From Candidatus Woesearchaeota archaeon (GTDB lineage Archaea > Nanobdellota > Nanobdellia > Woesearchaeales > UBA10216), in NCBI GenBank assembly GCA_016192905.1, contig JACPTG010000001.1, positions 357,005 to 421,004 on the forward strand: 64,000 bases of DNA, written 5' to 3'. Positions 6,001 through 30,542 of this stretch are shown here, in pieces (within the stretch, counting starts at the first letter, position 1; the number at the start of each line of letters is the position of its first letter). Made by a program: the position numbers and the translations under genes. Below the pieces are notes generated by a model. It did no database searches, was not told where the DNA came from, and saw nothing but the letters and a program-made list of their open reading frames with translations.

Positions 6001-6593
6001 GACTCGCCTGGGAAATAAGTGGCCTTACTGGTGCTGAGAGAGCTTGACTTGCCAACCACTGTAAAAGACTGGGGAAGCTGCTTGAAACGCCACTCAAGGC
6101 ACTGGTCAGCTTCGCCCCTAACATTCCAGTCAAACTTAACGTAGTAAGTGCCAGTTGATGACGGCGCGCTGAAAGACCGCGAACATGAGCCGCCAACCGC
6201 ATAGGCGCACCTGTTGGCTCCCCAGCCGTCCTGCCAGTTGCCACAATATATAGAAGGCTCCTTACCAAAGCCGACAGCAGTCACAAAAGTGCCGCCGGAA
6301 TTGTATACGCCCACTTTACCCTTGTTTGAATCATCATTAGGAAGTCGAAGAGTGGTCACAGTGTCTGACAACAGCCCATTCCCGCAGTCAACCTTTCCAA
6401 CATTATTGTAAGTCAGGGTGACAGAGTCGCTAGGGCAGAGGTTGTTGACCGGCGAAATTGAAATATCAGGCTCAGGATATGTAAGCTCGTGGCCTGCCCA
6501 CGGCTCAGAGTAAAGCGTCTCATCCTGACTGATGACAAAGGTGGAAAGAAGGAAAACACCCAACAAAGCAATGGCCAGCCACCTCAACCTCAT
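1..6593 (-). CDS. Giant Cys-rich secreted protein, N-terminal >2190 aa (C-terminus beyond window start)
   Basis: All minus-strand ORFs reported in 1-6590 share one frame and are short. The other minus frame has no reported ORF because it runs off the window. Its ATG at 6593-6591 overlaps the TGA of the upstream gene (ATGA). N-terminal signal peptide MRLRWLAIALLGVFLLSTFVISQ. Codon-scale Cys richness (many gca/aca on plus strand). Tandem ~670-bp repeats (2101/2771/3441). A beta-sandwich CarboxypepD_reg-like segment (..GSVVGKVTDAGGNPLGGVEVKIVG..) near 430-560. Confidence 0.6.
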   Translation of the reverse strand, partial: MRLRWLAIALLGVFLLSTFVISQDETLYSEPWAGHELTYPEPDISISPVNNLCPSDSVTLTYNNVGKVDCGNGLLSDTVTTLRLPNDDSNKGKVGVYNSGGTFVTAVGFGKEPSIYCGNWQDGWGANRCAYAVGGSCSRSFSAPSSTGTYYVKFDWNVRGEADQCLEWRFKQLPQSFTVVGKSSSLSTSKATYFPGESVTATTSTNCACTRNSFTVKILKQDGTLVSSMGSGVHASSDSTAYGDTFYGTAPSAAGTYNVMLDSPDNGCDRYTTINVCANSKSITPNKNNFNPGEYISASTLVSCGCAASSFSVRIVDKNGNLQSTLVRSSDSATAVSYSSPSPVTSYTDLFTGNVPNARGQYLVKLDSTNDDCDATSAVNVDTPKVTEACSPNSNVCSSSADCCSGNICDSNALGGFYKSVIVRAKGSYYPGYSGSVMPVVEVWIRESSSQSWVRRNTFTTTGSYADYTTQWLLGSEPLIRDGSEVAVVYTNPDEDNGRELNVDYIKVNDYATFQSENVRVRYHIGDFKSNADVRPGQEYMTKGGGLRFPIGNGVCIQCSGSRQGNPGNAFGGYQCEASCGASAACDEQSGGYSTGSQCCKSDCTSSTLDMNACSREQGLVANGNCYYGSLVVSCNLNSGWTCGASNAASCSSGTAACNDNGVVVSGRCYYGESCSAYSYTAPGSAVVDDGNSCTVDVCSSSGVSHVTKILDGLSSTQASDCCSGLRDNTNGVCIRCNSNSVQTSPSNVYGGNLCDSSCGADIRCDEKAAGAASGNSCCTTSCNYLDITGSCPSPKTVSGVCYYNPNPSCTSTVNCNYQTASIDDGNACTVDACTGSGVTHTALAAAGQACTQNSQCCSGTCDTSSGVCVTCDANKKQTSPTPSYGGGLCEASCGAAGTCDEKDTKPPSQTSCCYPDCSAISNCVGGCYYTSTTDNGCSACSFELSCRQAQNPVTRQGCSWCVQRTVEPDGGNVPSTASSCTAYTSGTTTGACQGTACISSTVTDTCLTSTSLREYYSSGISSCTSTDINCKNSETTYCGSGANAGKIMRNEWQCSSGACNDGAADSLVDDCGAKSGWYCNGNTKEYRQYTCGVVSGSAACTYAASQPEDCLGKASTDSDSGNYPFAYGSCNDYYGCGGTPGSADCVAWASSDYCMDGRYLGEMLANGVYCSGTVADCYSYGQSCVDSDGGSVFNSAGKVSGSDSTGCSQGKCSSSGYEIRDSCGGPSGNFVTEYGCPSNPSGQDSPYVSQTSDCESQESTYCSGRNIMRNEWRCSSGAEGGYCNDGAQDSLVQNCGLQSGWYCTPTGARELRDYTCSSASGSPACAYTVTQTDDCPKLASQDSDLGDRPDVSGYCRDFTQCAGSGPNAYCDLRDYNDNCVSNTDLAETYASGVSCPSKNYNCNTYAQSCSDLDGSPSNYNSAGSVSGYDGTSCSGSRCIGSSYAFTDRCSGNSLTEYGCGSNQDSIPWVSNSYNCENSEYNYCGSGGNAGKIMRNEWQCTNGGSGGYCNDAASDSMIQDCNLLTGWYCSNAGVRVYRSYACIPSGSPYCDYTITQTEDCTAKASEDSDGGYTPFTSGLCKDYYACQGVPGSAFCAFNNLNDVCTGNNLKETYAQGAACPDGTANCLTYGQTCSDPDGIAGVTTPRTTTGRDSTGCAGGRCTQLDFGKQDKCTVNALTEYGCPANADAQDVPFISQDYDCLTYGQTCLDSDSASPDVFKLSGTVSGTDAQGCLSGAGGGYCNLQSYSQADACASQYSLTEYACNPNPVAQDSPFTSSSKECRDYDTVATGDSDDSPSTTGVCFNGDKGSCGTGQCNVDVSHVASAEGCSGTCGTGVDSCTYSEYYAANSNGAGAAENCVLKTYDADDATAANHNPCTTCGKTWIGSGQGWLDSQGLPVGSQPGEYAGYQSTGCCGDDKDEVRKYKSGMGDLLTDVACCTTDKSCVLSGKCYQDIDTYASANGVQRKDVISRPDKDRVYADANGDGFLEVCDANTHPALWVTPTGSVVGKVTDAGGNPLGGVEVKIVGSRNRTFTAADGTYRIDGVNASRGTILYDMIASKAPFSPSTLKGIQIKDFDTVAPTMVNFALGFGSSLCEEDCSYTNDEMCHSECQGTNGCLFFDRAAIDACDGFHKDFTRPYNFTETGERHYEVRCCEGKPKEPVRIKATIKINSTAVARITRTVYYEGKLVKMIIDVFE

Positions 6594-8667: not shown

Positions 8668-9947
8668 TCGCAGCAGGAATAGCCGCCATACTATTCCAAA
8701 TAAACCCCTTCGCCCAGCCAGCACAGGCAAACCCAAACTACAGGCCACCCGCGGTAAGCCGACAGGCAGATACCTACCAAAGGCCAAGCGAAGAAAAGGA
8801 GCAGAACCCAAACAACAGATTCATAACAGCCAGCAACACACCATTAGTTTACCTACAGCAGGCAATAAGTCCGACGGCGACCGTAACGGGCACATCTGCA
8901 TTTACACCAACCACGCCATTCTTAACATGGTTCATGCCTAAGGGAAAAGAATGGGGAATAAGCAACCAATATGATTATTGTTGGGATCCGCCAGGCAAAA
9001 AGTGCGATTATAAAGACAGAGAGGAAACTATAGCCAGAGATAACCATACTGGAATAGACGTTATTTCATTCGAGAACACTATGGTTGTTGCTGCGGCCCC
9101 TGGAAAGGTTATGCCCATTCAAAGAGACCCTTCAAATGATGAGTATGGTGTTCTTATTGACCATGCTAATGGCTATGGTAGCTCTTATACTCACATGGAT
9201 AATCCGGCTGATATGCCCAATCCCATAAAAGTTGGACAGAAAATAGAAAGAGGTCAGATTATTGGAAAGTTTAAGCGGTATGGACTAGGCGGGGGTCATG
9301 TGCATTTCGCAGTTATGTTTATAAATGATGGAGAGTTAGGGTACGGGACGATGGGCCCATATAGGAGAATCAGTCAACCTGTAAGCCAATACAACCAAAA
9401 TTTGTGGCTTGATGATCGGGGGCGTGAAAACTGCCCGCATTACGCTGGGGAAACCGATGCGCAGGATTGTATAGGAGACTTTTGGCCGCCGTACACGGCA
9501 ACTGCTACCCCTAGTAGCACAAGCAGCCCGACGCAGGTTGCGACATACACACCAACAACACCGCCCACAGCAACACCCAACTTCACAGCAACACCCTCTC
9601 AAACAGGCACGCCAACGGCAACAAGCAGCCCAACAGCAGTTGCAACCTTCACACCAACAGGAACACCAAGCCCAACACCAAACTTCACACCAACACCTAC
9701 ACCAACAAACACGCCAACCTCAACACCCGCACAGGCAACACCCGAACCAGTAGTATGCGGAGCAGGCGGAAGAGTTGTACAGAAAGCAACAGGCCAACAG
9801 ACATGCCAATATTTCGCAAATGTCCCGGTAGTATTAAACTATACCTCAGGAAACCAGAACATAGCCGTAACTGGCGCTACCACAGCAGCATACACATCAG
9901 CAGCAGCAGACTACAGGATAAGCGCAACACGTCCGGCACTACGCTGA
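8667..9947 (+). CDS. M23 (LytM/lysostaphin-type) metallopeptidase-domain protein with Thr/Pro-rich linker and C-terminal Cys domain; start uncertain (first ATG at 8934)
   Basis: HTGID (HxxxD) and GGGHVHF (HxH) motifs. TPT-repeat linker. C-terminal VCGAGGRVVQKATGQQTCQYF domain shared with paralog. In-frame homology to paralog N-terminus extends upstream to ~8667 without ATG/GTG/TTG. Confidence 0.65.
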   Translation, partial: LAAGIAAILFQINPFAQPAQANPNYRPPAVSRQADTYQRPSEEKEQNPNNRFITASNTPLVYLQQAISPTATVTGTSAFTPTTPFLTWFMPKGKEWGISNQYDYCWDPPGKKCDYKDREETIARDNHTGIDVISFENTMVVAAAPGKVMPIQRDPSNDEYGVLIDHANGYGSSYTHMDNPADMPNPIKVGQKIERGQIIGKFKRYGLGGGHVHFAVMFINDGELGYGTMGPYRRISQPVSQYNQNLWLDDRGRENCPHYAGETDAQDCIGDFWPPYTATATPSSTSSPTQVATYTPTTPPTATPNFTATPSQTGTPTATSSPTAVATFTPTGTPSPTPNFTPTPTPTNTPTSTPAQATPEPVVCGAGGRVVQKATGQQTCQYFANVPVVLNYTSGNQNIAVTGATTAAYTSAAADYRISATRPALR

Positions 9948-10041
9948 GAAGGCCTCACACAAACATGTCAGTTGTAATGCCCAGATTTAACCAATAGTAT
10001 GCATTTCTAGTGCACAATTTAAGGATAAAATGTGCATTTAC

Positions 10042-10347
10042 AGGTGCACAAATATTATATAGCCTCAGGCACACAGGCTCACATATGTTCAGAAGGCCTG
10101 CAGCGCTGCCAAAAAATCCGAACGATTGGAAGACGTTTCAGTCCGGACTAAACACTTTTGTTGAGCCAAAGCAAGGTTCTCCATTGCATTCTGCTCCTGC
10201 TGCCAGCTTAAACCTGCCAACACACGCAAAGAACACCTTAAACAGCACGGCAATAGAATGTCCACTTCAAAGTAGTTAAAAGAATAAACTTTATAAATTA
10301 TAGCCCTTACAAAGTAGTAAAATGCCAAGACGCAAGGGTACGGCGAT
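10042..10347. repeat. 306-bp direct repeat copy 2 (5' flank of M23-domain paralog 2)
   Basis: See copy 1. Followed by ~60-nt segment absent from copy 1 that contains the ATG (10407) of paralog 2. Confidence 0.85.
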
Positions 10348-10406
10348 TGGAAGAAAGAGTAGAGGAAGCTTCCGGAACAGCCCGGCACAACCACAAACCA
10401 CACTGG

Positions 10407-11579
10407 ATGAGAGTAGCAGGATACACCCTGCCACTCGCAGCAGGAATAGCCGCACTACTAATCCAAACAAGCCCAGCCGCATCCCAACCAGCACAACCCA
10501 ACCCAAACTACCAGGTCTACTCGCAGCAGGTAGCAACTCCCACCCCCACAGCAACCAGACCGCCAACAAGCCCCATAGGATTCGCATTCTGGCCACTAAG
10601 CAAAAAAGTAAAGCTACCAGACGGAAAAGAAGGAGAACTGACATTCCGAATCACAAGCTATTTAGACAATGACCCGAGCAATGGAATCAGGAGATGGGAT
10701 GGGGCATATGACCCTGACCCGTTGTCTGTAAAGATATACACGTTAGACGGACACAGAGGGACAGACATACAGCCATTAAACGAAACCGGAACTACTGTTT
10801 ACGTGCTGGCATTGACTGATGGGAAAATTATCATAACAGAAGAAGCGACAGGAAATAATGGGTTAGTTATAGAGAACGATAAATGGACAATCCAATATTA
10901 TCATGTTTATAACATCCTAGTAGCCGATGGTGCAGCTGTGACTACCGGGCAAAAAATTGCTGAAATAATAATGGGCTCGGGGAAAGCCTATTTGCATTTA
11001 GGGGCTATTGAAGGAGGAGTTTTTAAACAGAGAGACTACTGGCGTGATGTCACAGGCCAGTCAATCAACACCCAAAGCCTGTGGATAGATGACAACTGCC
11101 CAAGATTCAAAGAAGACATAGACGCAGGAGTATTCTACTGCCTCCAAAGAACATATCCGGAATCATTAGCAACGCCATCAGCAACACCAACCAGCACAAG
11201 CAGCCCCACAGCAACCTACACGCCAACCGGAACACCAACCCCAACACCCAACTTCACAGCCACCCCCTCACCAACAGGCACGCCAACAGCAACCCCACAG
11301 CCAACAGCAACCACCACACCCACCAGCACCCCAACACCTCCACCAACAAACACACCAACAGGAACACCAACACCTCCACCAACAAACACCGCAACAGCAA
11401 CCCCAACACCCGCCCAAGGAACACCCGTAGCAATAGTATGCGAACAAAGCAAAGGCGGAAGAGTTGTGCAAAATGCGGCCACAGGCCAACAGACCTGCGT
11501 ATATACCCAAGGTGTGCCAGTTTTGTTGAACAGCTACACAACAGGAAACCACCAGAACATAGCCATAACATTACGCTGA
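10407..11579 (+). CDS. M23-like peptidase-domain paralog with degenerate HxH motif, N-terminal signal anchor, Thr/Pro linker, C-terminal Cys domain
   Basis: [20 protein letters not shown] hydrophobic N-terminus. HRGTD (HxxxD) present but HxH replaced by YLH (KAYLHLG). Same TP linker and C-terminal [23 protein letters not shown] domain as paralog 1. Confidence 0.7.
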
Positions 11580-11686
11580 CCTCAGTTAAATCTCACACAA
11601 ACACGTCAGTTGCAATGACAATGCTTAAATAATAGTATGCGTTTCCAGTGCACAATTTAAGCATAAAATGTGCATTTGCAATTAAC

Positions 11687-12973
11687 ATGGAAAAAAGCAG
11701 AGTGAAGAAGGCAGTCATAGACCAAAAAGAGGAGATAGAGCTGCTGTCTTCAAGAGTAAGGCTCATTGAAAGAAGCTGCTTTGAAAAATACAAAGCCTAC
11801 GCAGCATCAACGCAGATTAAAGTGATAATGGGGGTGAGAAGAAGCGGCAAATCAATTCTCGCCTACCAGCTGCTGAAAGACAAGCGGTTTGCATACATAA
11901 ATCTTGATGATGAAAAACTTGCAAATATTTCTGCAGATGACTTAAATGACGTTCTTGAAGCATGTTATGAAGTGTATGGGGATTTCAAGCATTTACTGCT
12001 TGATGAGATACAGAATATTCCCGGCTGGGAATTGTTTGTCAATAGGCTGCAAAGACAGGGATTTAACATCATTGTTACAGGAAGCAACGCCAATCTTCTG
12101 GGCAGAGAATTATCGACACACCTTACAGGAAGGCACATTGCCCTGGAACTCTTCCCATTTTCCTTCAAGGAATTCGCAATATACCATGGGACTGAGCTGA
12201 AGGCGCCTGATTTACTGTCCACAAAAGAGAGGGGGCTTATGAAAAAAAAGCTTGAAGAATACATGTTTACAGGAGGGTTTCCCGAAGTTGTCAGGGAGCC
12301 TGAAAGCAAAAAAGCATATCTCCAATCCCTGTATTCCGATATACTGAACAAAGACATAATAGTTCGCCATAAAATAAGGTTTTCAAAAACTTTCAAAGAG
12401 ATAGCGAACAGCCTCATGTCCAATGCCGCATCGCATGTAAGCTTTAACAAGCTAAAAAACAGCTTTAACCTAAAAAGCGCGCACACTGCCTCAAACTACA
12501 TGTCCTTCCTGGAAGAATCCTTTTTGTTCTTTTTAGTCCCCCGTTTTTCATTCAAGGCCAAGGAAAGGGCGATTGCAAGCAGAAAAATATATTCCATTGA
12601 CACCGGGATTATGGATACCCTGAGCGTAAATTTCTCGCCGAATATTGGAAAGATATACGAGAACATGGTTTTCCTGGAACTGGCCAGGAGAAGCTCCATG
12701 GGGCAATCTGAAATATACTATTGGCAGGACGCATACCAGAATGAAGTTGATTTTGTGGTGAAAGAAGGCAGGGAAATAAAGGAGCTCATCCAGGTATGCT
12801 ATGATGCGGGCAATTATGACACCAAAAAAAGGGAAGTGACTGCGCTGCTTAAATCAGCAAAGGAGCTAAAGTGCGGAAAATTGACTGTGATAACCAACGA
12901 TTACGAGGCTGAGGAAGCAGCAGATGGCGGAAAGGTCAAATTCGTGCCATTATGGAAATGGCTTCTGGAATGA
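11687..12973 (+). CDS. AAA family ATPase (AAA_14 + DUF4143-type architecture)
   Basis: Walker A GVRRSGKS, Walker B LLLDEIQ, C-terminal DUF4143-like region. AT-rich relative to neighbours. Leaderless: TATA-like element ~25 nt upstream of ATG at 11687 (tool start 11648 is GTG inside promoter). Confidence 0.75.
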   Translation: MEKSRVKKAVIDQKEEIELLSSRVRLIERSCFEKYKAYAASTQIKVIMGVRRSGKSILAYQLLKDKRFAYINLDDEKLANISADDLNDVLEACYEVYGDFKHLLLDEIQNIPGWELFVNRLQRQGFNIIVTGSNANLLGRELSTHLTGRHIALELFPFSFKEFAIYHGTELKAPDLLSTKERGLMKKKLEEYMFTGGFPEVVREPESKKAYLQSLYSDILNKDIIVRHKIRFSKTFKEIANSLMSNAASHVSFNKLKNSFNLKSAHTASNYMSFLEESFLFFLVPRFSFKAKERAIASRKIYSIDTGIMDTLSVNFSPNIGKIYENMVFLELARRSSMGQSEIYYWQDAYQNEVDFVVKEGREIKELIQVCYDAGNYDTKKREVTALLKSAKELKCGKLTVITNDYEAEEAADGGKVKFVPLWKWLLE

Positions 12974-12993
12974 CTGCAATTTCAAACGGTGAT

Positions 12994-13012
12994 GTGCACA
13001 AAAAATATAATA
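12994..13012 (+). promoter_or_regulatory. GTGCAC + A/T-rich TATA-like box upstream of TP-rich gene
   Basis: gtgcacaaaaaatataata ~22 nt upstream of GTG start at 13034. Confidence 0.35.
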
Positions 13013-13033
13013 GGCCATTGAAAGCTATACAGC

Positions 13034-14302
13034 GTGGCGCTTGATTACATAGTAAGGCGTGCAGGAAGGATAGCTGCAATAGTAGGAATAGCGGCTGCTG
13101 TTGGCTACTGCCAGATTGCCTCGCCAACACAAATTCCATCGCCAACATACACCAAGCCCGCCTTCTCCAACGACCTCAGCAGCAGACTTTACTTGCCTGC
13201 TGTAATGAACAACCAGGCGCCTGAAAAACGGTTGGACTACAAGTGGTACCTTTACGTAATACTCAACGGGGACATGTCCATCAAACCGACGCACACTCCA
13301 TCAGCAACAGCCACCTCTGGAACCACTCCCACTATAACAGCCACAGCAATTACTGCTCCCACCCTGACTGCCACCCCGGGACTAACGCCAACCGCCACCT
13401 CTGCCGCAGCAACAATGATAGCAGCAACACTCACAGCCACTGCAGCGCTAACACCAGCAGGCTACCTAACTTCAACACCCACGCAATACGCCATAATCAT
13501 ACCTACTGCATCATCAACATCATCACCCCTGGCATTACTGACCGGAACACCAACAAACACGGCAATAATCTACTTCACACAAACACCAACAGGAACAAGC
13601 ACAGGAACACCAACCTGGACACCCACAACCATAAACACACCAACAGGAACAGCAATAATATGGACACCAACAGCAACCGCCACCCCAATATGGACAGGAA
13701 CACCAACCTGGACACCCACAACCATAAACACACCAACAGGAACAGCAATCATACTGACACCAACCAACACACCCATACCTGCACCAACAGCAACAAGCAC
13801 AGCAACAGAAACTGCTACCTCGCCACCAACCCTAACAGTAACACCACAGCCAACCTACACGCCTCTGCCTACCGCGACCAACACAGCAACCTACACGCCA
13901 GTACCAACAGCAACATGGACCCCTACGAACACGGCAACACAAACATGGACGCCCACAGAGACAGCCACCTACACTCCCATCCCCACACCAACTGGAACAC
14001 CAACAAACACTACAACAGCAACCCCAACATGGACACCAACACCAACCAGCACAAGCAGCCCAACAGGAACACCAACAGGCACGCCTGTACCCACAGCCAG
14101 CTTTACCCCTGTACCGCCAACATCAACCAGCACAGCCAGCGCAACTCCCACCAGTACCCTAACACCAACACCCACAACAACAAGCAGCCCAACCCCAACA
14201 GAAATATTCATTCTGCCGCCGAGCTCGATATTCACAAGTTACCTGAACGCTGCGCTGAGGATAAACGATATCACCTGGCTGATTTATGATGTCAGATGGT
14301 GA
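13034..14302 (+). CDS. Thr/Pro-rich low-complexity (mucin-like) membrane-anchored protein
   Basis: GTG start, N-terminal hydrophobic segment IAAIVGIAAAVGY, then ~350 aa of TPT/TAT repeats using same codon pattern as M23 linkers. Internal 93-bp direct repeat (13607-13655 / 13700-13748). Confidence 0.5.
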   Translation: MALDYIVRRAGRIAAIVGIAAAVGYCQIASPTQIPSPTYTKPAFSNDLSSRLYLPAVMNNQAPEKRLDYKWYLYVILNGDMSIKPTHTPSATATSGTTPTITATAITAPTLTATPGLTPTATSAAATMIAATLTATAALTPAGYLTSTPTQYAIIIPTASSTSSPLALLTGTPTNTAIIYFTQTPTGTSTGTPTWTPTTINTPTGTAIIWTPTATATPIWTGTPTWTPTTINTPTGTAIILTPTNTPIPAPTATSTATETATSPPTLTVTPQPTYTPLPTATNTATYTPVPTATWTPTNTATQTWTPTETATYTPIPTPTGTPTNTTTATPTWTPTPTSTSSPTGTPTGTPVPTASFTPVPPTSTSTASATPTSTLTPTPTTTSSPTPTEIFILPPSSIFTSYLNAALRINDITWLIYDVRW

Positions 14303-14344: not shown

Positions 14345-14447
14345 GGGGCTGTGGTGTAACTTGGCTATCACACAAGGTTTGGGACACAAATTGGGAACAA
14401 TTGTGTCAGAAGACCTTGTGATCGGGGTTCAAATCCTCGCAGCCCCA
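14345..14447 (+). tRNA. tRNA-Pro (anticodon UGG) with ~30-nt intron in anticodon loop
   Basis: Acceptor GGGGCTG/CAGCCCC. T-arm CGGGG-TTCAAAT-CCTCG. Anticodon stem CAAGG..CCTTG with loop TTTGGG[intron containing GACACAA..TTGTGTC helix]A. Discriminator A. Confidence 0.6.
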
Positions 14448-14617
14448 TTAAAATACCCTTCTCGCAGTCTTCAATGCCTGGGTTACGTCGTCCCTTTCAA
14501 GGTTAAGGGAAACCCTGCTACCCCTAAGCAGATCAATAAACTCACTTAAGACTTCTGAACGGGTCTCATTCAGGACCTTTCCGAAAAGATTCAGTCTTTT
14601 TTTTTAAAAGATTACGG

Positions 14618-14633
14618 AATCCTCGCAGCCCCA
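14618..14633 (+). repeat. Direct repeat of tRNA-Pro 3' end (att-like)
   Basis: aatcctcgcagcccca matches tRNA 3' end (14432-14447). 171 nt downstream of tRNA. Confidence 0.55.
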
Positions 14634-14725
14634 CCTGTTTTTCGTTTGCAGGATTGGGCTTAGCCAAATTACCGCAATTTACGATAAAAGGAAAAATTTT
14701 TATAGTTATCCACTATTAATCCGCT

Positions 14726-14968
14726 ATGACAACTACTTTGACATTGAAGTTTAAAGGGGTCGAGGCAAAAGCCCTTGATGACATGATAAAGGCAGGTCTG
14801 TTCAACAGCAAGTCAGAGGCGATCAGGGCTGCCCTGGTAAAATACAGCACGGACATGGGGCTTATCAGCAGGGAAAAACTGTGGGAAGAGATAGGCAGAT
14901 ATCCAAGAAGAGGTGTCAGCGAACGCCAGCTCTCCAAAGACCTGGAAGAGATAGGGAATGAAGTATAA
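14726..14968 (+). CDS. Ribbon-helix-helix (CopG/VapB-like) antitoxin
   Basis: 80 aa, SKSEAIRAALVKY RHH signature. Overlaps downstream PIN gene by 11 nt. Confidence 0.65.
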   Translation: MTTTLTLKFKGVEAKALDDMIKAGLFNSKSEAIRAALVKYSTDMGLISREKLWEEIGRYPRRGVSERQLSKDLEEIGNEV

Positions 14969-15383
14969 AGCCTTTCTGGATACCGCAGTTTTTATCTATT
15001 CCTTTGAATTTCCTGATTCCAATAGCAATACCGTGTTATGGCTTGTTAACAAGGGAATTCTAGAGGCAATTATCTCTGAAAGGGTATTCCTTGAATGCAT
15101 AAGATACTTTGAAAAACATCATACAGCCAAGCTTGCAAAGATTTTCAGGAAATATCTTCTTGAGAGTTGCGTGATAATTCCCAGCCAGCAAGTATCCGAT
15201 GAAATGACCTGGCTTAAAGGAAGAATAAAAGACAAGGATCTGGAACAGCTTGCAACTGTCAGGCGTCTCGGACTCAAATTTCTGATATCATACGACAGGG
15301 ATTTCCTTGAAATAAAAGAATATGCGACGCCAAAAAGATTCCTTATGGAAATAGGGGTAAAAGCGAAAGAGACCGAATACTGA
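14958..15383 (+). CDS. PIN-domain nuclease (VapC-like toxin)
   Basis: 141 aa. Conserved acidic residues (LDTAVFIY.., ..SYDRDF..). Paired with upstream RHH. Confidence 0.7.
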   Translation: MKYKAFLDTAVFIYSFEFPDSNSNTVLWLVNKGILEAIISERVFLECIRYFEKHHTAKLAKIFRKYLLESCVIIPSQQVSDEMTWLKGRIKDKDLEQLATVRRLGLKFLISYDRDFLEIKEYATPKRFLMEIGVKAKETEY

Positions 15384-15384
15384 G

Positions 15385-15400
15385 CTTCTCGCAGCCCCAT
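15385..15400 (+). repeat. Second direct repeat of tRNA-Pro 3' end (att-like)
   Basis: cttctcgcagccccat(tt) matches tRNA 3' end and following tt. Immediately downstream of vapC stop. Confidence 0.55.
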
Positions 15401-15439
15401 TTAATTAACTTTATAAACAACCGTAATAAACCCTCCGCT

Positions 15440-15685
15440 ATGGCGACCCTCACAAAATACCCGTCCGTAAAGAGGTTTGGGGTAAGGTATGGAAGGCGCG
15501 TCAAGGAGACATTTGGAAAAATTGAAAAGGCAGGAAGGGAAACTTCACTGTGCCCCCTGTGCAGGAGGACGAGAATGAAAAGGCTGGCCGCAGGGATATG
15601 GAGCTGCAAAAAGTGCAACGTCAAAATGGCTGGCGGGGCGTACAGCGTGACAAAGATGGCGAAGGAAACCGCAGAGGCTGAATAA
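15440..15685 (+). CDS. rpl37ae: 50S ribosomal protein L37Ae (eL43)
   Basis: C4 zinc ribbon CPLC..CKKC. Typical length and basic composition. Confidence 0.9.
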   Translation: MATLTKYPSVKRFGVRYGRRVKETFGKIEKAGRETSLCPLCRRTRMKRLAAGIWSCKKCNVKMAGGAYSVTKMAKETAEAE

Positions 15686-15822
15686 TGGTGGAATACAAGT
15701 GCTTTTACTGCAACAAGAAAGTTGCGACAGACTACCTGCGCAAGAAGGTAAGGTGCCCATACTGCGGAAGCAAGATACTGTTCAAGCCAAGGCGGACAAT
15801 CACCAAGATAAAGGCAAGATAG
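15685..15822 (+). CDS. rpoP: DNA-directed RNA polymerase subunit P (Rpo12/RpoP)
   Basis: 45 aa MVEYKCFYCNKK..CPYCGSKILFKPR zinc ribbon. TAATG overlap with L37ae stop. Not in ORF track (too short). Confidence 0.8.
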   Translation: MVEYKCFYCNKKVATDYLRKKVRCPYCGSKILFKPRRTITKIKAR

Positions 15823-15826
15823 GGCG

Positions 15827-16048
15827 ATGAAATACGAAGCAACCATTAAAACCACGGATGAGGCTGAGCTCATCTTCAAGGCCTTTGAGCCTGAAGGAAT
15901 GAAGTCGGACAGGTCCAGCTACCAGGTTTCGATGGAAGGGGACTCAGTCCTTTTCAGGATTTCTGCGGCAGACGCCACAGCCCTCAGGGCGGCGCTAAGC
16001 TCAATAAGCAAGGCGCTGGCTGTAATTGAAAAGACAGGAGAAATCTGA
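15827..16048 (+). CDS. pcc1: KEOPS complex subunit Pcc1
   Basis: 73 aa. ..ADATALRAALSSISKAL.. motif. Conserved position between rpoP and prefoldin beta. Confidence 0.65.
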   Translation: MKYEATIKTTDEAELIFKAFEPEGMKSDRSSYQVSMEGDSVLFRISAADATALRAALSSISKALAVIEKTGEI

Positions 16049-16050
16049 AA

Positions 16051-16383
16051 ATGGCAATCCCAAAGGAAGCTGAGGAAAAACTGCAGCAGCTCCAGCTATT
16101 CGAGCAGAACCTGCAGAACTTCATGATGCAAAAACAAGCCCTCCAGATGCAGCTTGTAGAGGCAGAATCAGCACTTGAAGAGCTGAAGGACGCCAGCACA
16201 GCCTACAGGATAATAGGAAACATAATGGTGAAGGCTGAAAAGGAGGAGCTCACCAGCGAGCTTGCCTCAAAGAAGGAGACAACAGAGCTAAGGATAAAGG
16301 CGATAGAAAAACAGGAAGCCATGCTCAGGGAAAGGGCAACGAAGCTTCAGCAGGAAGTCCTGGGAGCATTGAAAGATGAGTGA
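16051..16383 (+). CDS. pfdB: Prefoldin beta subunit
   Basis: 110 aa coiled-coil. EEKLQQLQLFEQNLQNF..QKQALQMQLVEAESALEEL characteristic. Confidence 0.85.
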   Translation: MAIPKEAEEKLQQLQLFEQNLQNFMMQKQALQMQLVEAESALEELKDASTAYRIIGNIMVKAEKEELTSELASKKETTELRIKAIEKQEAMLRERATKLQQEVLGALKDE

Positions 16384-16615
16384 CGTAAATGAGATAATAA
16401 CCGCGCTCTCTGAACTTGAGCAGGACAACACAGTGCCAAGAAACATAAAGGACCGGGTGCAAAGGACAATAACCGCGCTGAACGGAAACGGCGAAATGTC
16501 AATGAAAATAGACAAGGCACTCCAGGAACTTGACGAAGTAGCAGACGACATAAACCTCCAGGCCTACACAAGAACGCAGATATGGAACATAGTCAGCATG
16601 CTGGAGAAGCTTTAG
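16376..16615 (+). CDS. UPF0147 family conserved archaeal protein
   Basis: 79 aa. ..VPRNIKDRVQ..TQIWNIVSMLE pattern typical of UPF0147. 8-nt overlap with pfdB. Confidence 0.6.
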   Translation: MSDVNEIITALSELEQDNTVPRNIKDRVQRTITALNGNGEMSMKIDKALQELDEVADDINLQAYTRTQIWNIVSMLEKL

Positions 16616-17417: not shown

Positions 17418-17666
17418 ATGGAAGAAGCCGGAGTTCAGGTAACAACAGCATCGCTCAAAGGACAGGTAGTTATTCCGCAGGAAATAAGAGAGCGCATGAG
17501 GATAGACCCGGGCACGAAATTTGCAGTGTACGGGAGGGGGGATACCATCATCTTCAAGAAAATAGAAGTCCCGACCGTAAAGGACTTTGAAAGGCTTGCA
17601 AGGTTTGGAAGAGCATTCGCCAAGCGAAGGGGAATCAGAGAAAGCGATGTGCTCCAAAATGATTAA
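17418..17666 (+). CDS. AbrB/SpoVT (MazE-like swapped-hairpin) family DNA-binding protein
   Basis: 82 aa. LKGQVVIPQEIRERMRIDPGTKF motif. Confidence 0.55.
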   Translation: MEEAGVQVTTASLKGQVVIPQEIRERMRIDPGTKFAVYGRGDTIIFKKIEVPTVKDFERLARFGRAFAKRRGIRESDVLQND

Positions 17667-19599: not shown

Positions 19600-20411
19600 C
19601 TATCCCACCAACGAGGAAATTTCCTTTACAAGCCGAAAAGACGAATTGCCTGAGGGAGCAACGCCAGAGAACCTTACGCTTTGGTCTGCTGCGCCGGGCT
19701 TTGGATTGAAAATATGCACATTGGAAAGGCCATAAGCCATTGCCATGCGGCTGATGGCCAGCCTCGGCAAGACAATCCCTGGATTAACATTTACTGCAAC
19801 AGTGCCGTCATCCCTTAAGGCCCCTTCAATTTCAAAGGGGACGCGGCGGCCAGCAAGAACCCAGCTTCCATCGCGCTCAGCAGCCGTAAGGTCTGTATTA
19901 CCCGCAACCAGATTCCAGTAAAGGGCATTAGCCAGCGGCAAATCCACACGGCGCAGCCATGAAACCTCGCCTTCCTTCCAAAGCAGGCGATAGAACTCAC
20001 TGGAGCCCCCTATCCCCGCTGCTGCAACGAAATGCAAATTCCCTGCAGGTTCCCATCCCCCGAAGGCCAGGAGTGCCCAAACCAGTCGGAGCCTGACGGA
20101 AAGAGGTGCCTTACGAAGGGCTCATTTGACACCAAGTAAACTCCCCCTTCGGAATGTTGCAGAAACGGAGTTGCAAGCGCGAAATTTGACTGGGAAGGCC
20201 GCTCCCGCTCAAAGGTAACTGCATCAGGCAGGACAACCCTGCAGTCAGGCTGCTGGCCGGGCTGACTGAAGCCAAGCCCATGGTTGAAATAGTCTGCGAG
20301 GCCCTGCCTGCTGATGGCAGCCCTGTGCACTGCATCGTAGCCATCGCATACATTGGCTATCACCTGAGCAAGGTCCATTTTAGTGCGGCATGACAGGATA
20401 ATTATGAACAC
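19600..20411 (-). pseudogene. Hypothetical protein split by frameshift near 20010-20040 (133-aa + 145-aa ORFs)
   Basis: Upstream ORF ends ..GDGNLQGICISLQQRG* while downstream ORF begins one nt out of frame (TTG 'start' LHFVAAAGIGG). Combined ~275 aa. Confidence 0.4.
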
Positions 20412-20727
20412 GTAGCTGCTCCCAGCCCCAATAAGTCAAACGCAGCCCGCTCGCGTGGGGGTGACTTGCCAATTGGTCTGATTTTGAGTACTCCTTCATA
20501 AGAGCCACAACTTCAGGATACTTTGTATCAATGGTGACATCGAACCAATCATCCCTGCCCTCAACACGGACCTCTGAAGCAATCACTGCATTGAACCCAT
20601 GCATCTTTGAAACTATAAATCCAGTTGCAGGCTCAAAGCGGACAGAACACTCTGGCATACGGTCATCCAGAAAAGCTGCGAAATCAGCGATTACAGCCAC
20701 AACCGCATCTGACAGCTCCATCATCAC
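20380..20727 (-). CDS. Hypothetical small protein (115 aa)
   Basis: ATGA overlap with upstream ATPase stop. Acidic, no motifs recognised. Confidence 0.45.
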   Translation of the reverse strand: MMMELSDAVVAVIADFAAFLDDRMPECSVRFEPATGFIVSKMHGFNAVIASEVRVEGRDDWFDVTIDTKYPEVVALMKEYSKSDQLASHPHASGLRLTYWGWEQLRVHNYPVMPH

Positions 20728-28715: not shown

Positions 28716-30014
28716 ATGGATGACTCGGCCATAGAAAGATCTGAAATCCTGCTAAGACTGATAGAAAAGGCTGCAAGATTCAGCACAAGATTCAACGTAT
28801 ACCCCTATAGTGCCGCTGCCAGAATAGTTGATGAACTATACAGGCTGGCAGAAAACATCCCTGCTGTTGAAGATCCAAGCAACAAGCATGAGGTAATACA
28901 GGCAGAGCTAAAAAGAAGAATGGCCAGCGAAGCCACAACCCTGGAACACTATATACTTGGAAGGCCATATGACTTTAATACGGTAATGGCCGTATACGGA
29001 ATTGCAGGCGGCGACGTGGTAGGGCTAAGAGACTGGCTGGACAACAACAGGGCAGGCGCTCTGGCCTCAATTGACAGGCTCTTTGAGTCAGCAGACGTTG
29101 AGAGCTACGAGCTTGGGCTTCACCTGGACATCCCCCAAGTGAGAAGACAGGCTGAGGAGTTTGCAGCTGTCCAACTGCAAAAATATCACGCCAAACTGGG
29201 GCGACTCACACAAGGCTTATCAAACGTGGGCGAATACCTCAGGGATATCAGCGCTGTGCCCACAACAGAGGGAAGGTCATACTTTGACCCGCTTACATCC
29301 ACGCTGGCAGTTAGCTTCCCCGCATTTGTTTACCAGACAGAAGACGGCAGCATGCACATCAGAGAGCGCGAACTCGTAAGAATCTATGGGCATGAAGGAA
29401 TGGGACACGGCCTAAACCAGGTCATGACCAAAGCCAGCGGACTGCCCTACTTCCTGACCAAAGACTCACAGATAACACAGGCAACCGCCGAATCCCTGGC
29501 ACAATTCTACCAGCGCAGAATACTTGAAGACCTCAAGAATTCGCCTGAAACACAGAGGGCGCTGGGAATAAATCATGACTTTGAAGACATATACCGGGAA
29601 TCCCTTGATGTGGCCATAGTGGAAGAATACAGACTCAGGACCATGCAATATGGGATAAGCCTGCTCGCAGACAAATCCCTCGGAAGCCCGGAAGACCCGG
29701 CAGCAATAAGAAGGAGGATAGCTATCCTGAGCGAGGTGGCCATTGACCCTGCATTCCCGCAAAGCTTCATAGAAGGCAACAGAAACAACTTCGATTCCAG
29801 GGGCAACCTGCACCCTTACCTCGTCAGCGAGCTGAGGTATGCGGCGCAGCCAGTCCAAAGGGCGCTGGATGCGTTCGCCAAGAACGGAATTCATTATGAC
29901 CCAAATGGCAGGAACCTGATAGACCAGACTATGCTCACCGGATTCTGGACGCCAATAGGATTTGTCCAGAATGCGCAGGTTGCAGCCGTGGAAGGCCTTA
30001 GCCTGAAGGCATAA
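28716..30014 (+). CDS. Hypothetical protein with HExxH zinc-metallopeptidase-like motif
   Basis: 432 aa. Single HEGMGHG motif. No other family signature recognised. Confidence 0.55.
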   Translation: MDDSAIERSEILLRLIEKAARFSTRFNVYPYSAAARIVDELYRLAENIPAVEDPSNKHEVIQAELKRRMASEATTLEHYILGRPYDFNTVMAVYGIAGGDVVGLRDWLDNNRAGALASIDRLFESADVESYELGLHLDIPQVRRQAEEFAAVQLQKYHAKLGRLTQGLSNVGEYLRDISAVPTTEGRSYFDPLTSTLAVSFPAFVYQTEDGSMHIRERELVRIYGHEGMGHGLNQVMTKASGLPYFLTKDSQITQATAESLAQFYQRRILEDLKNSPETQRALGINHDFEDIYRESLDVAIVEEYRLRTMQYGISLLADKSLGSPEDPAAIRRRIAILSEVAIDPAFPQSFIEGNRNNFDSRGNLHPYLVSELRYAAQPVQRALDAFAKNGIHYDPNGRNLIDQTMLTGFWTPIGFVQNAQVAAVEGLSLKA

Positions 30015-30306
30015 TCCTGATACCCTGTTTATCCCTCGTCAAAAGGCCCTGTCTGCCCTCGGAGATGCCACACTCTTCGGCCACATCACTAGGAATCCTG
30101 ACAGCAATGCTGTTGCCCCACTTGGCAAAGGTTACCTGCCTGGCATTCCTCAGCCTCCTGTACTTTGCAGCCAGGCTCCTCAGCTGAGGCATTGTCATAA
30201 GCTCCTCTCCGCACTTAACACACCGATAAGCCTCAAACTCAACCCCATCCTGCCTGATAACATCCTTATTTCTTTCCATAGCACCATTACACACTGGACA
30301 TTTCAT
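29998..30306 (-). CDS. Zinc-ribbon + AbrB/SpoVT-domain protein (putative antitoxin)
   Basis: CPVC..C..C N-terminal ribbon. ..FAKWGNSIAVRIPSDVAEECGI.. swapped-hairpin. 4-nt overlap with upstream gene. Confidence 0.55.
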   Translation of the reverse strand: MKCPVCNGAMERNKDVIRQDGVEFEAYRCVKCGEELMTMPQLRSLAAKYRRLRNARQVTFAKWGNSIAVRIPSDVAEECGISEGRQGLLTRDKQGIRIMPSG

Positions 30307-30542
30307 ATTAGTTCCCCCCTCTCTACAGTTTTGATTACAATCGCATGGCCGAGGTCTTCACCCAAACAGATTATGGAACCATGCTTGCCCTTTTTGACAA
30401 ATTTCAGTCCATTCTTCCCGAATCGAGTTACTTTTCCTGTCCTCAAAACATCAAGTACCTGATCAGGATAGGCTATCTCCCTTTCCCTCGCCCTTTTAAC
30501 CGCATGAACGGTAATCAGTACCGGCCTGCCTTGGAAATCCAC
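30303..30542 (-). CDS. DUF4258-like small protein (putative toxin)
   Basis: 79 aa. ITVHAVKRAREREI.. pattern. Operonic with Zn-ribbon/AbrB gene. Confidence 0.4.
   Translation of the reverse strand: MDFQGRPVLITVHAVKRAREREIAYPDQVLDVLRTGKVTRFGKNGLKFVKKGKHGSIICLGEDLGHAIVIKTVERGELI

Follow-up and report, generated by a model that had tools for sequence, protein, structure and literature searches.

Genes and repeats at the tRNA-Pro–rpl37ae locus

The locus described here lies in a 64,000-nt stretch of DNA from a Candidatus Woesearchaeota archaeon (contig JACPTG010000001.1, positions 357,005 to 421,004, referred to throughout as the window), in which a tRNA-Pro(UGG) gene is separated from the ribosomal protein gene rpl37ae by two toxin–antitoxin (TA) units, one intact and one decayed, both terminating in a repeat of the tRNA 3' end. 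The tRNA gene (14345-14447, forward strand) is the sole Rfam match within the window (RF00005, 48.9 bits, with 32 additional anticodon-loop bases), and was identified by ARAGORN with introns allowed (ARAGORN -i) as tRNA-Pro(tgg) with a 29-nt intron at 14384-14412, i.e. at gene position 40, the canonical 37/38 site. Default ARAGORN called no tRNA at the locus, and it was the combination of Rfam and ARAGORN -i that bore out the intron-containing tRNA-Pro proposed in the initial annotation. Since this intron-containing gene is missed by default tRNA finders, the att logic of the locus is missed also.

The 3' end of this gene, the putative integration target (attB), is present three times. The terminal 16 nt of the tRNA (AATCCTCGCAGCCCCA; copy 1, 14432-14447, forward strand), which comprise part of the T-arm, the 3' strand of the acceptor stem and the discriminator A, recur exactly at 14618-14633 (copy 2). 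The terminal 12 nt (CTCGCAGCCCCA) recur exactly at 15388-15399 (copy 3, forward strand), beginning 5 nt past a toxin stop codon, and the match of copy 3 to copy 1 extends to CTCGCAGCCCCATT. The proposal that the tRNA end recurs twice thus withstood formal alignment. Perfect matches to the 12-mer number exactly three in the window and fall inside the same 1 kb; the number of matches with at most two mismatches was reached in 0 of 100 shuffles, and by our own calculation the probability that a further exact 12-mer arises by chance in 128 kb (both strands) is ~0.008. One-mismatch copies of the core occur at 20419, 22558 and 61082, and the copy at 20419 was rejected as a secondary att site, being located within an open reading frame (ORF; codons WGWE).

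Between copies 2 and 3 lies cassette C, a 766-nt unit (14634-15399, forward strand) that comprises a promoter/operator region, an antitoxin gene, a toxin gene and copy 3 itself. The antitoxin gene (14726-14968, forward strand) encodes an 80-aa VapB-like protein of ribbon-helix-helix (RHH) type, the match to RHH_1 (16.8 bits, E=0.0068) falling under the 20.5 cut-off, and overlaps by 11 nt with a gene (14958-15383, forward strand) for a 141-aa PIN-domain toxin (VapC; Pfam PF01850, 34.1 bits, over the 23.6 cut-off). The toxin has the same sequence as MBI3051280.1, a protein of Candidatus Woesearchaeota archaeon that carries the annotation VapC; its acidic residues D8, E46, D94, D113 and D115 are intact and invariant across 13 homologues, and the 80-aa ORF accompanies the PIN toxin in four other contexts. 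These features point to a VapBC-type pair, with predicted activity and an RHH assignment that remains below the Pfam threshold, situated exactly between copies 2 and 3 as first described. At ~26 nt before the RHH ATG, a TATA-like box, TTTTTATA (14697-14704), is overlapped by an imperfect palindrome (14683-14710), an arrangement that is suggestive of an autoregulated, leaderless promoter. The G+C content of the cassette (0.418) is atypically low and differs from that of the host, the value for the window being 0.499 +/- 0.028 with only 1.4% of 766-nt windows equally low.

Homologues of cassette C occur elsewhere. A PIN protein 70% identical to that of the window, together with its 80-aa partner, is found in another archaeon (L332; comparison loci are referred to by L numbers), where the 70%-identical cassette is preceded by a homologous TATAGT..CACTATTA box and no repeat is present, and an 88%-identical RHH-PIN pair adjoins an ABC ATPase gene. 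Positions ~6427-6535 (minus strand) of L332 read by eye as a tRNA-Arg(TCT) gene with a ~20-nt T-loop insertion, missed by ARAGORN -i, the 3' end of which is 3 nt from the RHH-PIN stop codon; a ParE-type pair is located on the opposite side.

The segment between copies 1 and 2 is a decayed UPF0175/DUF3368 TA cassette, designated B' because an intact counterpart, cassette B, is present in the related locus L006. A tblastn search of the window with the L006 UPF0175 protein returned a match at 14600-14451 (E=8e-20), the translation of which corresponds to UPF0175 residues 11-94 with a 34-codon in-frame deletion. By tblastn and blastn against L006 the antitoxin gene remnant occupies 14448-14603 on the minus strand, with its stop codon abutting the tRNA end, and has lost the first 10 codons of UPF0175 and the entire DUF3368 toxin gene. 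Blastn alignment of the two sequences revealed deletions of 102 and 544 nt in the cassette B region, with window 14448-14600 aligning, on the minus strand, to two separate parts of the L006 UPF0175 gene. The remainder of the segment (14604-14633, forward strand) is the conserved right arm of cassette B, which ends in copy 2, aligns by blastn with L006 9159-9130 and shows no difference from the one distal copy that L006 has. That this segment is a decayed TA cassette makes the event a probable serial integration of two cassettes. The weaker echo of the tRNA end that had been reported at 14455-14470 did not survive as a degenerate att site: the sequence is there, but it consists of the C-terminal codons of the UPF0175 pseudogene on the minus strand (ALKTARRVF and stop). 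Since these codons are conserved in UPF0175, and read CCTAGCAGTCTT in the homologue from L355, the echo is coding sequence as opposed to an att relic.

Beyond copy 3 lies the ancestral tRNA-to-rpl37ae spacer (15400-15439, forward strand), including the rpl37ae promoter box AACTTTATAAA (15407-15417), followed by the housekeeping cluster rpl37ae, rpoP, pcc1, pfdB and UPF0147 (15440-16615, forward strand), which bounds the hotspot and is syntenic in L013, L014, L016, L017 and L021. Pfam matches agreed with the initial description of an L37ae-RpoP-Pcc1-PfdB cluster adjoining the third copy, and added UPF0147 to it.

Empty sites and strain variation

From 14422 onward the window is matched at 100% identity by four independent assemblies (L001, L002, L004 and L005), indicating that the arrangement is not an assembly artefact. 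A different arrangement is found in L006 (GCA_964504135.1), the housekeeping flank of which shares ~96.7% identity with that of the window, as does that of L007, an independent assembly from a different run in which the L006 arrangement is reproduced. In the orientation of the window, the order in L006 is tRNA-Pro, PIN plus MazE/AbrB genes (cassette A), intact UPF0175 plus DUF3368 genes (cassette B) and rpl37ae. The PIN stop codon of cassette A is 1 nt from the tRNA end, while cassette B ends ...TAAAGATTACGGAATCCTCGCAGCCCCA and is followed directly by TTTAATTAACTTTATAAACAACC... and rpl37ae. In place of copy 2, the vapBC cassette and copy 3 of the window, L006 and L007 have one ...ACGGAATCCTCGCAGCCCCA|TTTAATTAAC..., and alignment of the junctions revealed that the single distal copy in L006 consists of the left arm of window copy 2 joined to the right arm of window copy 3. 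This hybrid junction indicates that 14634-15399 (766 nt) has been inserted in the window, or excised in L006, exactly at the 12-nt core. Such a left-arm/right-arm exchange is the signature of reciprocal site-specific recombination, i.e. the attB x attP pattern.

Sites that are empty of both cassettes were found in more distant relatives. In L016, a groundwater Woesearchaeota metagenome-assembled genome with a DRG GTPase 65% identical to that of the window, rpl37ae is located 49 nt after an intron-containing tRNA-Pro(UGG) gene and is preceded by the same AACTTTATAAA box as lies beyond window copy 3. The tRNA-Pro gene is also directly upstream of rpl37ae in L017, L021, L283 and L309. Direct adjacency of the two genes is, on this comparative evidence, the ancestral state, and its occurrence in distant relatives indicates that the whole of 14448-15399 is inserted DNA. 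The comparison with empty sites that was recommended in the initial annotation has therefore been answered at two levels, L006 and L007 being empty for cassette C, and L016, L017 and L021 for the entire insert. In L017 (5841-6030) and L021 (5623-5783) the tRNA-Pro gene itself seemingly has a T-arm insertion of ~85-110 nt, ...CCCCGGTTCAAA[...]GTCCGGGCAGCCCCA; these genes were not reported by Rfam at the gathering threshold, and ARAGORN returned an implausible 75-nt call in L021.

A further arrangement is present in L003, which diverges from the window exactly at the tRNA end and has a MazE-like gene there instead. Four allelic states can thus be distinguished: empty (L016 and others), A + B (L006 and L007), B' + C (the window) and A + B' + C (L003). 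At the two single nucleotide polymorphisms (SNPs) nearest the A/B junction L003 has the L006 alleles, with window alleles beyond, and this mosaic indicates that L003 is a homologous recombinant between co-occurring strain types. In addition, L279 (Ga0082335_1000156), the L37ae protein of which is 93% identical to that of the window, has HicB/HicA genes in the same spacer, 0-542 nt after an intron-less tRNA-Pro gene. No distal 3' repeat was found for this HicBA insert; a second copy of the tRNA's initial 14 nt (GGGGCTGTGGTGTA) lies 56 nt before the gene. Close relatives therefore have four TA families at a single intergenic site. When L37ae and RpoP were looked up as exact proteins, no arrangement beyond those described above was returned.

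The 5' flank of the tRNA gene differs also. Homology between the window and L006/L007 ends 3 nt upstream of the tRNA (window 14342 leftwards; L006 10737-10923), and thus these ~97%-identical genomes diverge on that side too; window 8934-14302 encodes Thr/Pro-rich repeat proteins and M23 peptidases, and two upstream ORFs of the window had no exact-protein record. Two SNPs are located in the variable region of the tRNA (14419-14420), the contigs of L001, L002, L004 and L005 begin at window 14422, and that of L014 begins 52 nt before rpl37ae. Assembly breaks within or beside the tRNA 3' end are consistent with co-existing alleles that differ in the tRNA SNPs and in their cassettes.

Recurrent use of the tRNA-Pro end in metagenomic loci

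Metagenome contigs were scanned for the last 20 nt of the tRNA, which yielded 64 tRNA-Pro loci. In 13 of these (~20%) the terminal 12-17 nt of the tRNA are duplicated 46-188 nt downstream, compared with ~0.3 matches of a 16-mer with three or fewer mismatches expected by chance, and no such 3'-end repeat was found for the other tRNAs in the fetched loci. This shows that the same site has been used recurrently and independently. Several of the distal copies read GTTC..TTGAATCCTCGCAGCCCCA, a degenerate T-loop (GTTC..GAATCC), and, like window copy 2, have G where the resident tRNA has A. The degenerate T-loop fits with attP arms that imitate a longer piece of the tRNA.

The inserts between these repeats (L270, L277, L282, L287/L312, L296, L298, L306, L308, L314, L317, L322 and L330) contain no ORF and have ordinary cellular genes beyond them, and most of the tRNAs are Pro(GGG) according to ARAGORN. 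Across the 64 loci only very small inserts were seen between repeats and no large integrated element; in L317 a 100-nt unit is present twice in tandem. Rfam returned nothing in these mini-inserts. Those of L282, L314 and L317 share a conserved 8-bp hairpin at ~+15 to +44 past the tRNA end, e.g. GTGTTATT-GAGCGTTAGCGA-AATAACAC, in which GA/GA flanks the inner loop and pairing-preserving changes affect 4 of the 8 stem pairs and both pairs of the inner 2-bp stem (6 of 10 predicted pairs); the hairpin, of consensus GTRYYATY-GA...GA-RATRRYAC and located downstream of tRNA-Pro(GGG), has no Rfam match, and could be a small RNA or a recombination arm. In single-sequence folds, the mini-inserts of L277, L298, L306 and L308 (46-48 nt) together with the repeat form a 'minihelix', GGGCTGTGAGGC...GCCTCGCAGCCC, that resembles the acceptor stem of the tRNA stacked on its T stem. 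Distinct organisms differ, as judged by eye, by a single T-A to C-G switch at the end of this helix, and an alignment-based fold of these four mini-inserts revealed no covariation.

Serial site-specific integration and its alternatives

That DNA has been inserted behind the tRNA gene with exact borders, and that strains differ in whether and how the site is occupied, is observed directly. The most probable interpretation, to which a probability of about 70% is assigned, is that the tRNA-Pro(UGG)-rpl37ae spacer is a site-specific integration hotspot, at which two integrase-less TA cassettes were added serially at the tRNA 3' end. The attB site would be the terminal 12-16 nt of the tRNA gene. 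The first insert would have been the UPF0175/DUF3368 cassette, now mostly deleted (14448-14633, bounded by the 16-nt repeat), and the second the RHH-PIN cassette (14634-15399), which would have recombined with the distal repeat, that is, the attR of the first insert. Copy 2 would then comprise the old left arm, the core and the cassette, and copy 3 the cassette arm, the core and the original flank, each cassette having either introduced a copy of the tRNA 3' end or left one behind. The enzyme responsible was presumably a tyrosine-type integrase, acting in trans or since lost. Addiction to the TA systems may keep the cassettes in place while neighbouring DNA is deleted, and homologous recombination between co-occurring strains may reshuffle the array. 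Excision of cassette C would be expected to give the circle junction GAGCTTCTCGCAGCCCCACCTGTTT (ACTGAGCTTCTCGCAGCCCCACCTGTTTTTCG) and the restored site ...GGAATCCTCGCAGCCCCATTTAATT (GGAATCCTCGCAGCCCCATTTAATTAAC); among diagnostic junctions, tRNA|TTTAATTAAC would denote the loss of all cassettes and tRNA|CTTAGTTG the presence of cassette A. Both the tRNA gene and the rpl37ae promoter are intact after the insertions. The initial suggestion of an integration scar or mini-island is supported by the exact repeats, the empty sites and the L006 junction, and its serial form by the presence of two cassettes, B' then C, each ending in a copy of the tRNA end.

Several observations weigh against serial integration of this kind. 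No integrase or recombinase domain was detected in the window ORFs scanned with Pfam or PHROGs, in keeping with the integrase-free cargo originally described, nor was an integrase present among the precomputed Pfam hits for genes at 14.4-44 kb or, for 66 ORFs that follow metagenomic tRNA-Pro genes, in a list of 25 families from which those with a single member are omitted. Ten ORFs of ~300 aa located right after second repeat copies appear to encode ordinary cellular proteins, as judged by eye and not by a profile-library scan. The identity between repeats (12-16 nt) is far below the ~40-50-bp att sites of characterised archaeal integrases of the SSV/pT26-2 type (PMC7253208). The cassettes are also extremely compact, with stop codons 0-5 nt from the att core, which random decay of a larger element would not predict. 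Cassette A, as present in L006 and L003, is bounded by the tRNA end on one side and has no repeat on the other, hence at least one gain or loss at this site took place outside the att rule. Lastly, neither a free, plasmid- or virus-borne attP nor a parental element was found in viral, plasmid and phage collections: a scan of IMG/VR with five 14-17-nt core and arm patterns gave chance matches, all of them within unrelated coding sequence and none in surroundings resembling a tRNA or an attP, and tblastn with the PIN toxin against plasmid and phage collections gave no match.

An insertion mechanism without any dedicated recombinase, whether microhomology-mediated, illegitimate or by allele replacement through homologous recombination, would render the repeats incidental. 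Cassette A and the HicBA insert of L279, which have no distal repeat, are what such a mechanism would produce, and L003 demonstrates that homologous recombination does move cassette combinations between strains. However, microhomology would not strike the same 12-16 nt repeatedly in many lineages, nor would it yield the clean left-arm/right-arm exchange seen for cassette C, and as a general explanation of the locus it is considered highly improbable. It is the reuse of the tRNA-Pro end, together with the attP-like distal arms, that favours a site-specific recombinase over microhomology. Even less probable is insertion of a transposon or casposon, with the repeats arising as target-site duplications from staggered cleavage at the tRNA-Pro 3' end. 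Casposons of Aciduliprofundum boonei do target the 3' end of tRNA-Pro, with the T-loop as 'leader', and could in principle be stacked in tandem (PMC5137440). Against this, cassettes A, B and C have no terminal inverted repeats (TIRs), their scores being at or under the shuffled 95th percentile or maximum, and no Cas1 or PolB domains were found in the window ORFs scanned. The repeats, moreover, are of variable length (12-17 nt) and lie wholly within the tRNA, whereas the casposon duplication is a fixed 15 bp with a 5-bp overlap of the tRNA (PMC5137440). The casposon or transposon interpretation is therefore largely refuted.

A less conventional interpretation is that TA operons are themselves mobile units with their own short recombination site, which are inserted and excised at a fixed site by a recombinase encoded elsewhere, in a manner functionally similar to that of integrons, repeats of a host gene 3' end taking the place of attC/attI. 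By extension, single-operon TA cassettes of DPANN archaea, bounded by copies of fixed host gene 3' ends, those of tRNA-Pro here and of a Zn-ribbon protein gene in L355/L361, would be stacked and swapped between strains, and the 46-120-nt mini-inserts behind tRNA-Pro, some of which have a covarying hairpin, could be empty or minimal cassettes of such a system. In favour of this, every cassette seen consists of one promoter and two genes with borders 0-45 nt from the repeats, and the metagenomic loci have small inserts only. Moreover, a second TA array was identified in a different archaeon (L355 2908-3821 and L361 1-1882; also L354 and L356-L360), in which a DUF3368/UPF0175 cassette with a protein 66% identical to that of cassette B is bordered on both sides by directly repeated copies of a Zn-ribbon gene 3' end (...NCPYCNARVMGI and stop codon; 43-49 nt, 86-90% identical), with no integrase within 3 kb. 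Nucleotide homology between the two DUF3368 cassettes begins ~40 nt before the ATG and ceases at the stop codon, and the strain variant L361 has an extra PIN_3 cassette and a third repeat copy, the distal arms of both its cassettes sharing AAAATTCCAARAAACTGCCC. Each displaced copy of the Zn-ribbon repeat can still be read as an alternative C-terminus, and a Fic gene is located downstream. Relatives of the cassette B DUF3368 toxin, 162 aa in length, number in the hundreds, and several are assigned by name to Woesearchaeota or Nanoarchaeia.

Other evidence speaks against mobile TA cassettes. The arms that adjoin the core differ between window cassettes B and C (ACGGAATC vs TGAGCTTC), which leaves no cassette-borne site common to both; single-strand folding of the att regions is not significant (z-scores of -1.1 to +1.1), and no recombinase has been identified. 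Furthermore, TA addiction combined with deletion bias, acting on ordinary integrative elements, could give the same end state. The occurrence of the same cargo, equally compact, between repeats of two unrelated target genes is compatible with both trimming by addiction and cassette mobilisation. On balance, the idea that the operons are mobile in their own right is regarded as unlikely, and the stacking and swapping of such cassettes in DPANN archaea as equally doubtful. A true integron, or an array of integron cassettes lacking an integrase (CALIN), was rejected: the junctions read CCCCA|TTAAAA, CCCCA|CCTGTT and CCCCA|TTTAAT as opposed to G|TTRRRY, the att regions fold no better than shuffled sequences, and there is no IntI-like ORF in the window.

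Relationship to known systems

Serial site-specific integration, as favoured here, is of a kind already known, namely att-flanked remnants of serial integration at a tRNA gene, stabilised by TA systems. What is new is the occurrence in a DPANN archaeon, with an unusually minimal cargo consisting of a single operon without an integrase. The published model that appears to fit best is the accretion of cis-mobilizable elements (CIMEs), of which the locus may be an archaeal counterpart. CIMEs, described for ICESt1-type islands of Streptococcus, are flanked by attL and attR and lack integration genes; accretion proceeds when a later element integrates into attR, where the displaced end of the target gene now lies, and the resulting tandem has three direct repeats (PMC5704250). 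The likeness lies in att-flanked units without integration genes, arranged in tandem with three repeats, cassettes B' and C each being bounded by repeats and containing TA genes only, with no integration or transfer genes. CIMEs, in contrast, are bacterial, usually several kb in size and demonstrably derived from integrative and conjugative or integrative and mobilizable elements, whereas the units here occur in a DPANN host, consist of a single 0.7-0.8-kb TA operon and have no known parental element or integrase. Archaeal tyrosine integrases (SSV / pT26-2 'suicidal' and pNOB8 types) target tRNA 3' ends (PMC7253208), and elements of the SSV/pT26-2 type share with this locus the target, the direct-repeat borders and tandem or serial insertion at one tRNA. 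Their att identity is ~40-51 bp, and a split int(N)/int(C) or int gene is located at the border, compared with 12-16 bp and no int fragment here.

The cargo resembles known type II TA systems (VapBC, MazE/AbrB-PIN, UPF0175-DUF3368 and HicBA) in its two-gene operons with overlapping or abutting genes, the complete set of PIN acidic residues and the palindromic operator at the promoter, and the genes themselves are not unusual. Family 2 casposons of A. boonei share the tRNA species and the gene end, but have TIRs, Cas1, PolB and a fixed 15-bp duplication mostly downstream of the tRNA, none of which is present here (PMC5137440). Integron arrays, including archaeal ones (PMC9668308) and chromosomal TA cassettes, are similar in their compact, TA-rich cassettes, repeated site and variability between strains; they differ in having IntI, an attC fold and the G|TTRRRY junction, the repeats at this locus being plain direct copies of a host gene 3' end.

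To our knowledge, mobile elements are almost unknown in DPANN archaea. The locus provides a nucleotide-resolved case of variation in gene content between near-identical DPANN strains, in which the unit of change is a single TA operon added at a tRNA 3' end, and the empty state, the two alternative cassette sets and a recombinant are all present in public data. If TA operons were indeed mobile cassettes, this would represent a new way in which reduced archaeal genomes reshuffle their defence and addiction genes, and, were cassettes exchanged in this way, a functional analogue of integrons that operates on ordinary att-type direct repeats. Most worthy of attention are that the single-operon architecture recurs and that mini-inserts behind tRNA-Pro are widespread.

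Other variable regions of the window

Strain differences are also evident outside the hotspot. A second strain-variable patch is located at window 20393-20713 (L006 3877-4206), beside AAA-ATPase genes, where the predicted proteins are of 122 and 113 aa on the window-type contig and of 259 and 116 aa in L006. In the pcc1-pfdB interval (window 16000-16080; L006 8472-8702) the strains differ by an indel or frameshift, the gene calls being of 73 and 110 aa in the window and 76 and 86 aa in L006. Solitary small genes of AbrB/MazE-like type are located at window 17418-17666 and 30013-30500. One of these is directly upstream of the DRG GTPase gene and conserved in L006, the other, at ~30.0-30.3 kb, is beside a 79-aa ORF, and they may be further TA-type modules outside the hotspot.

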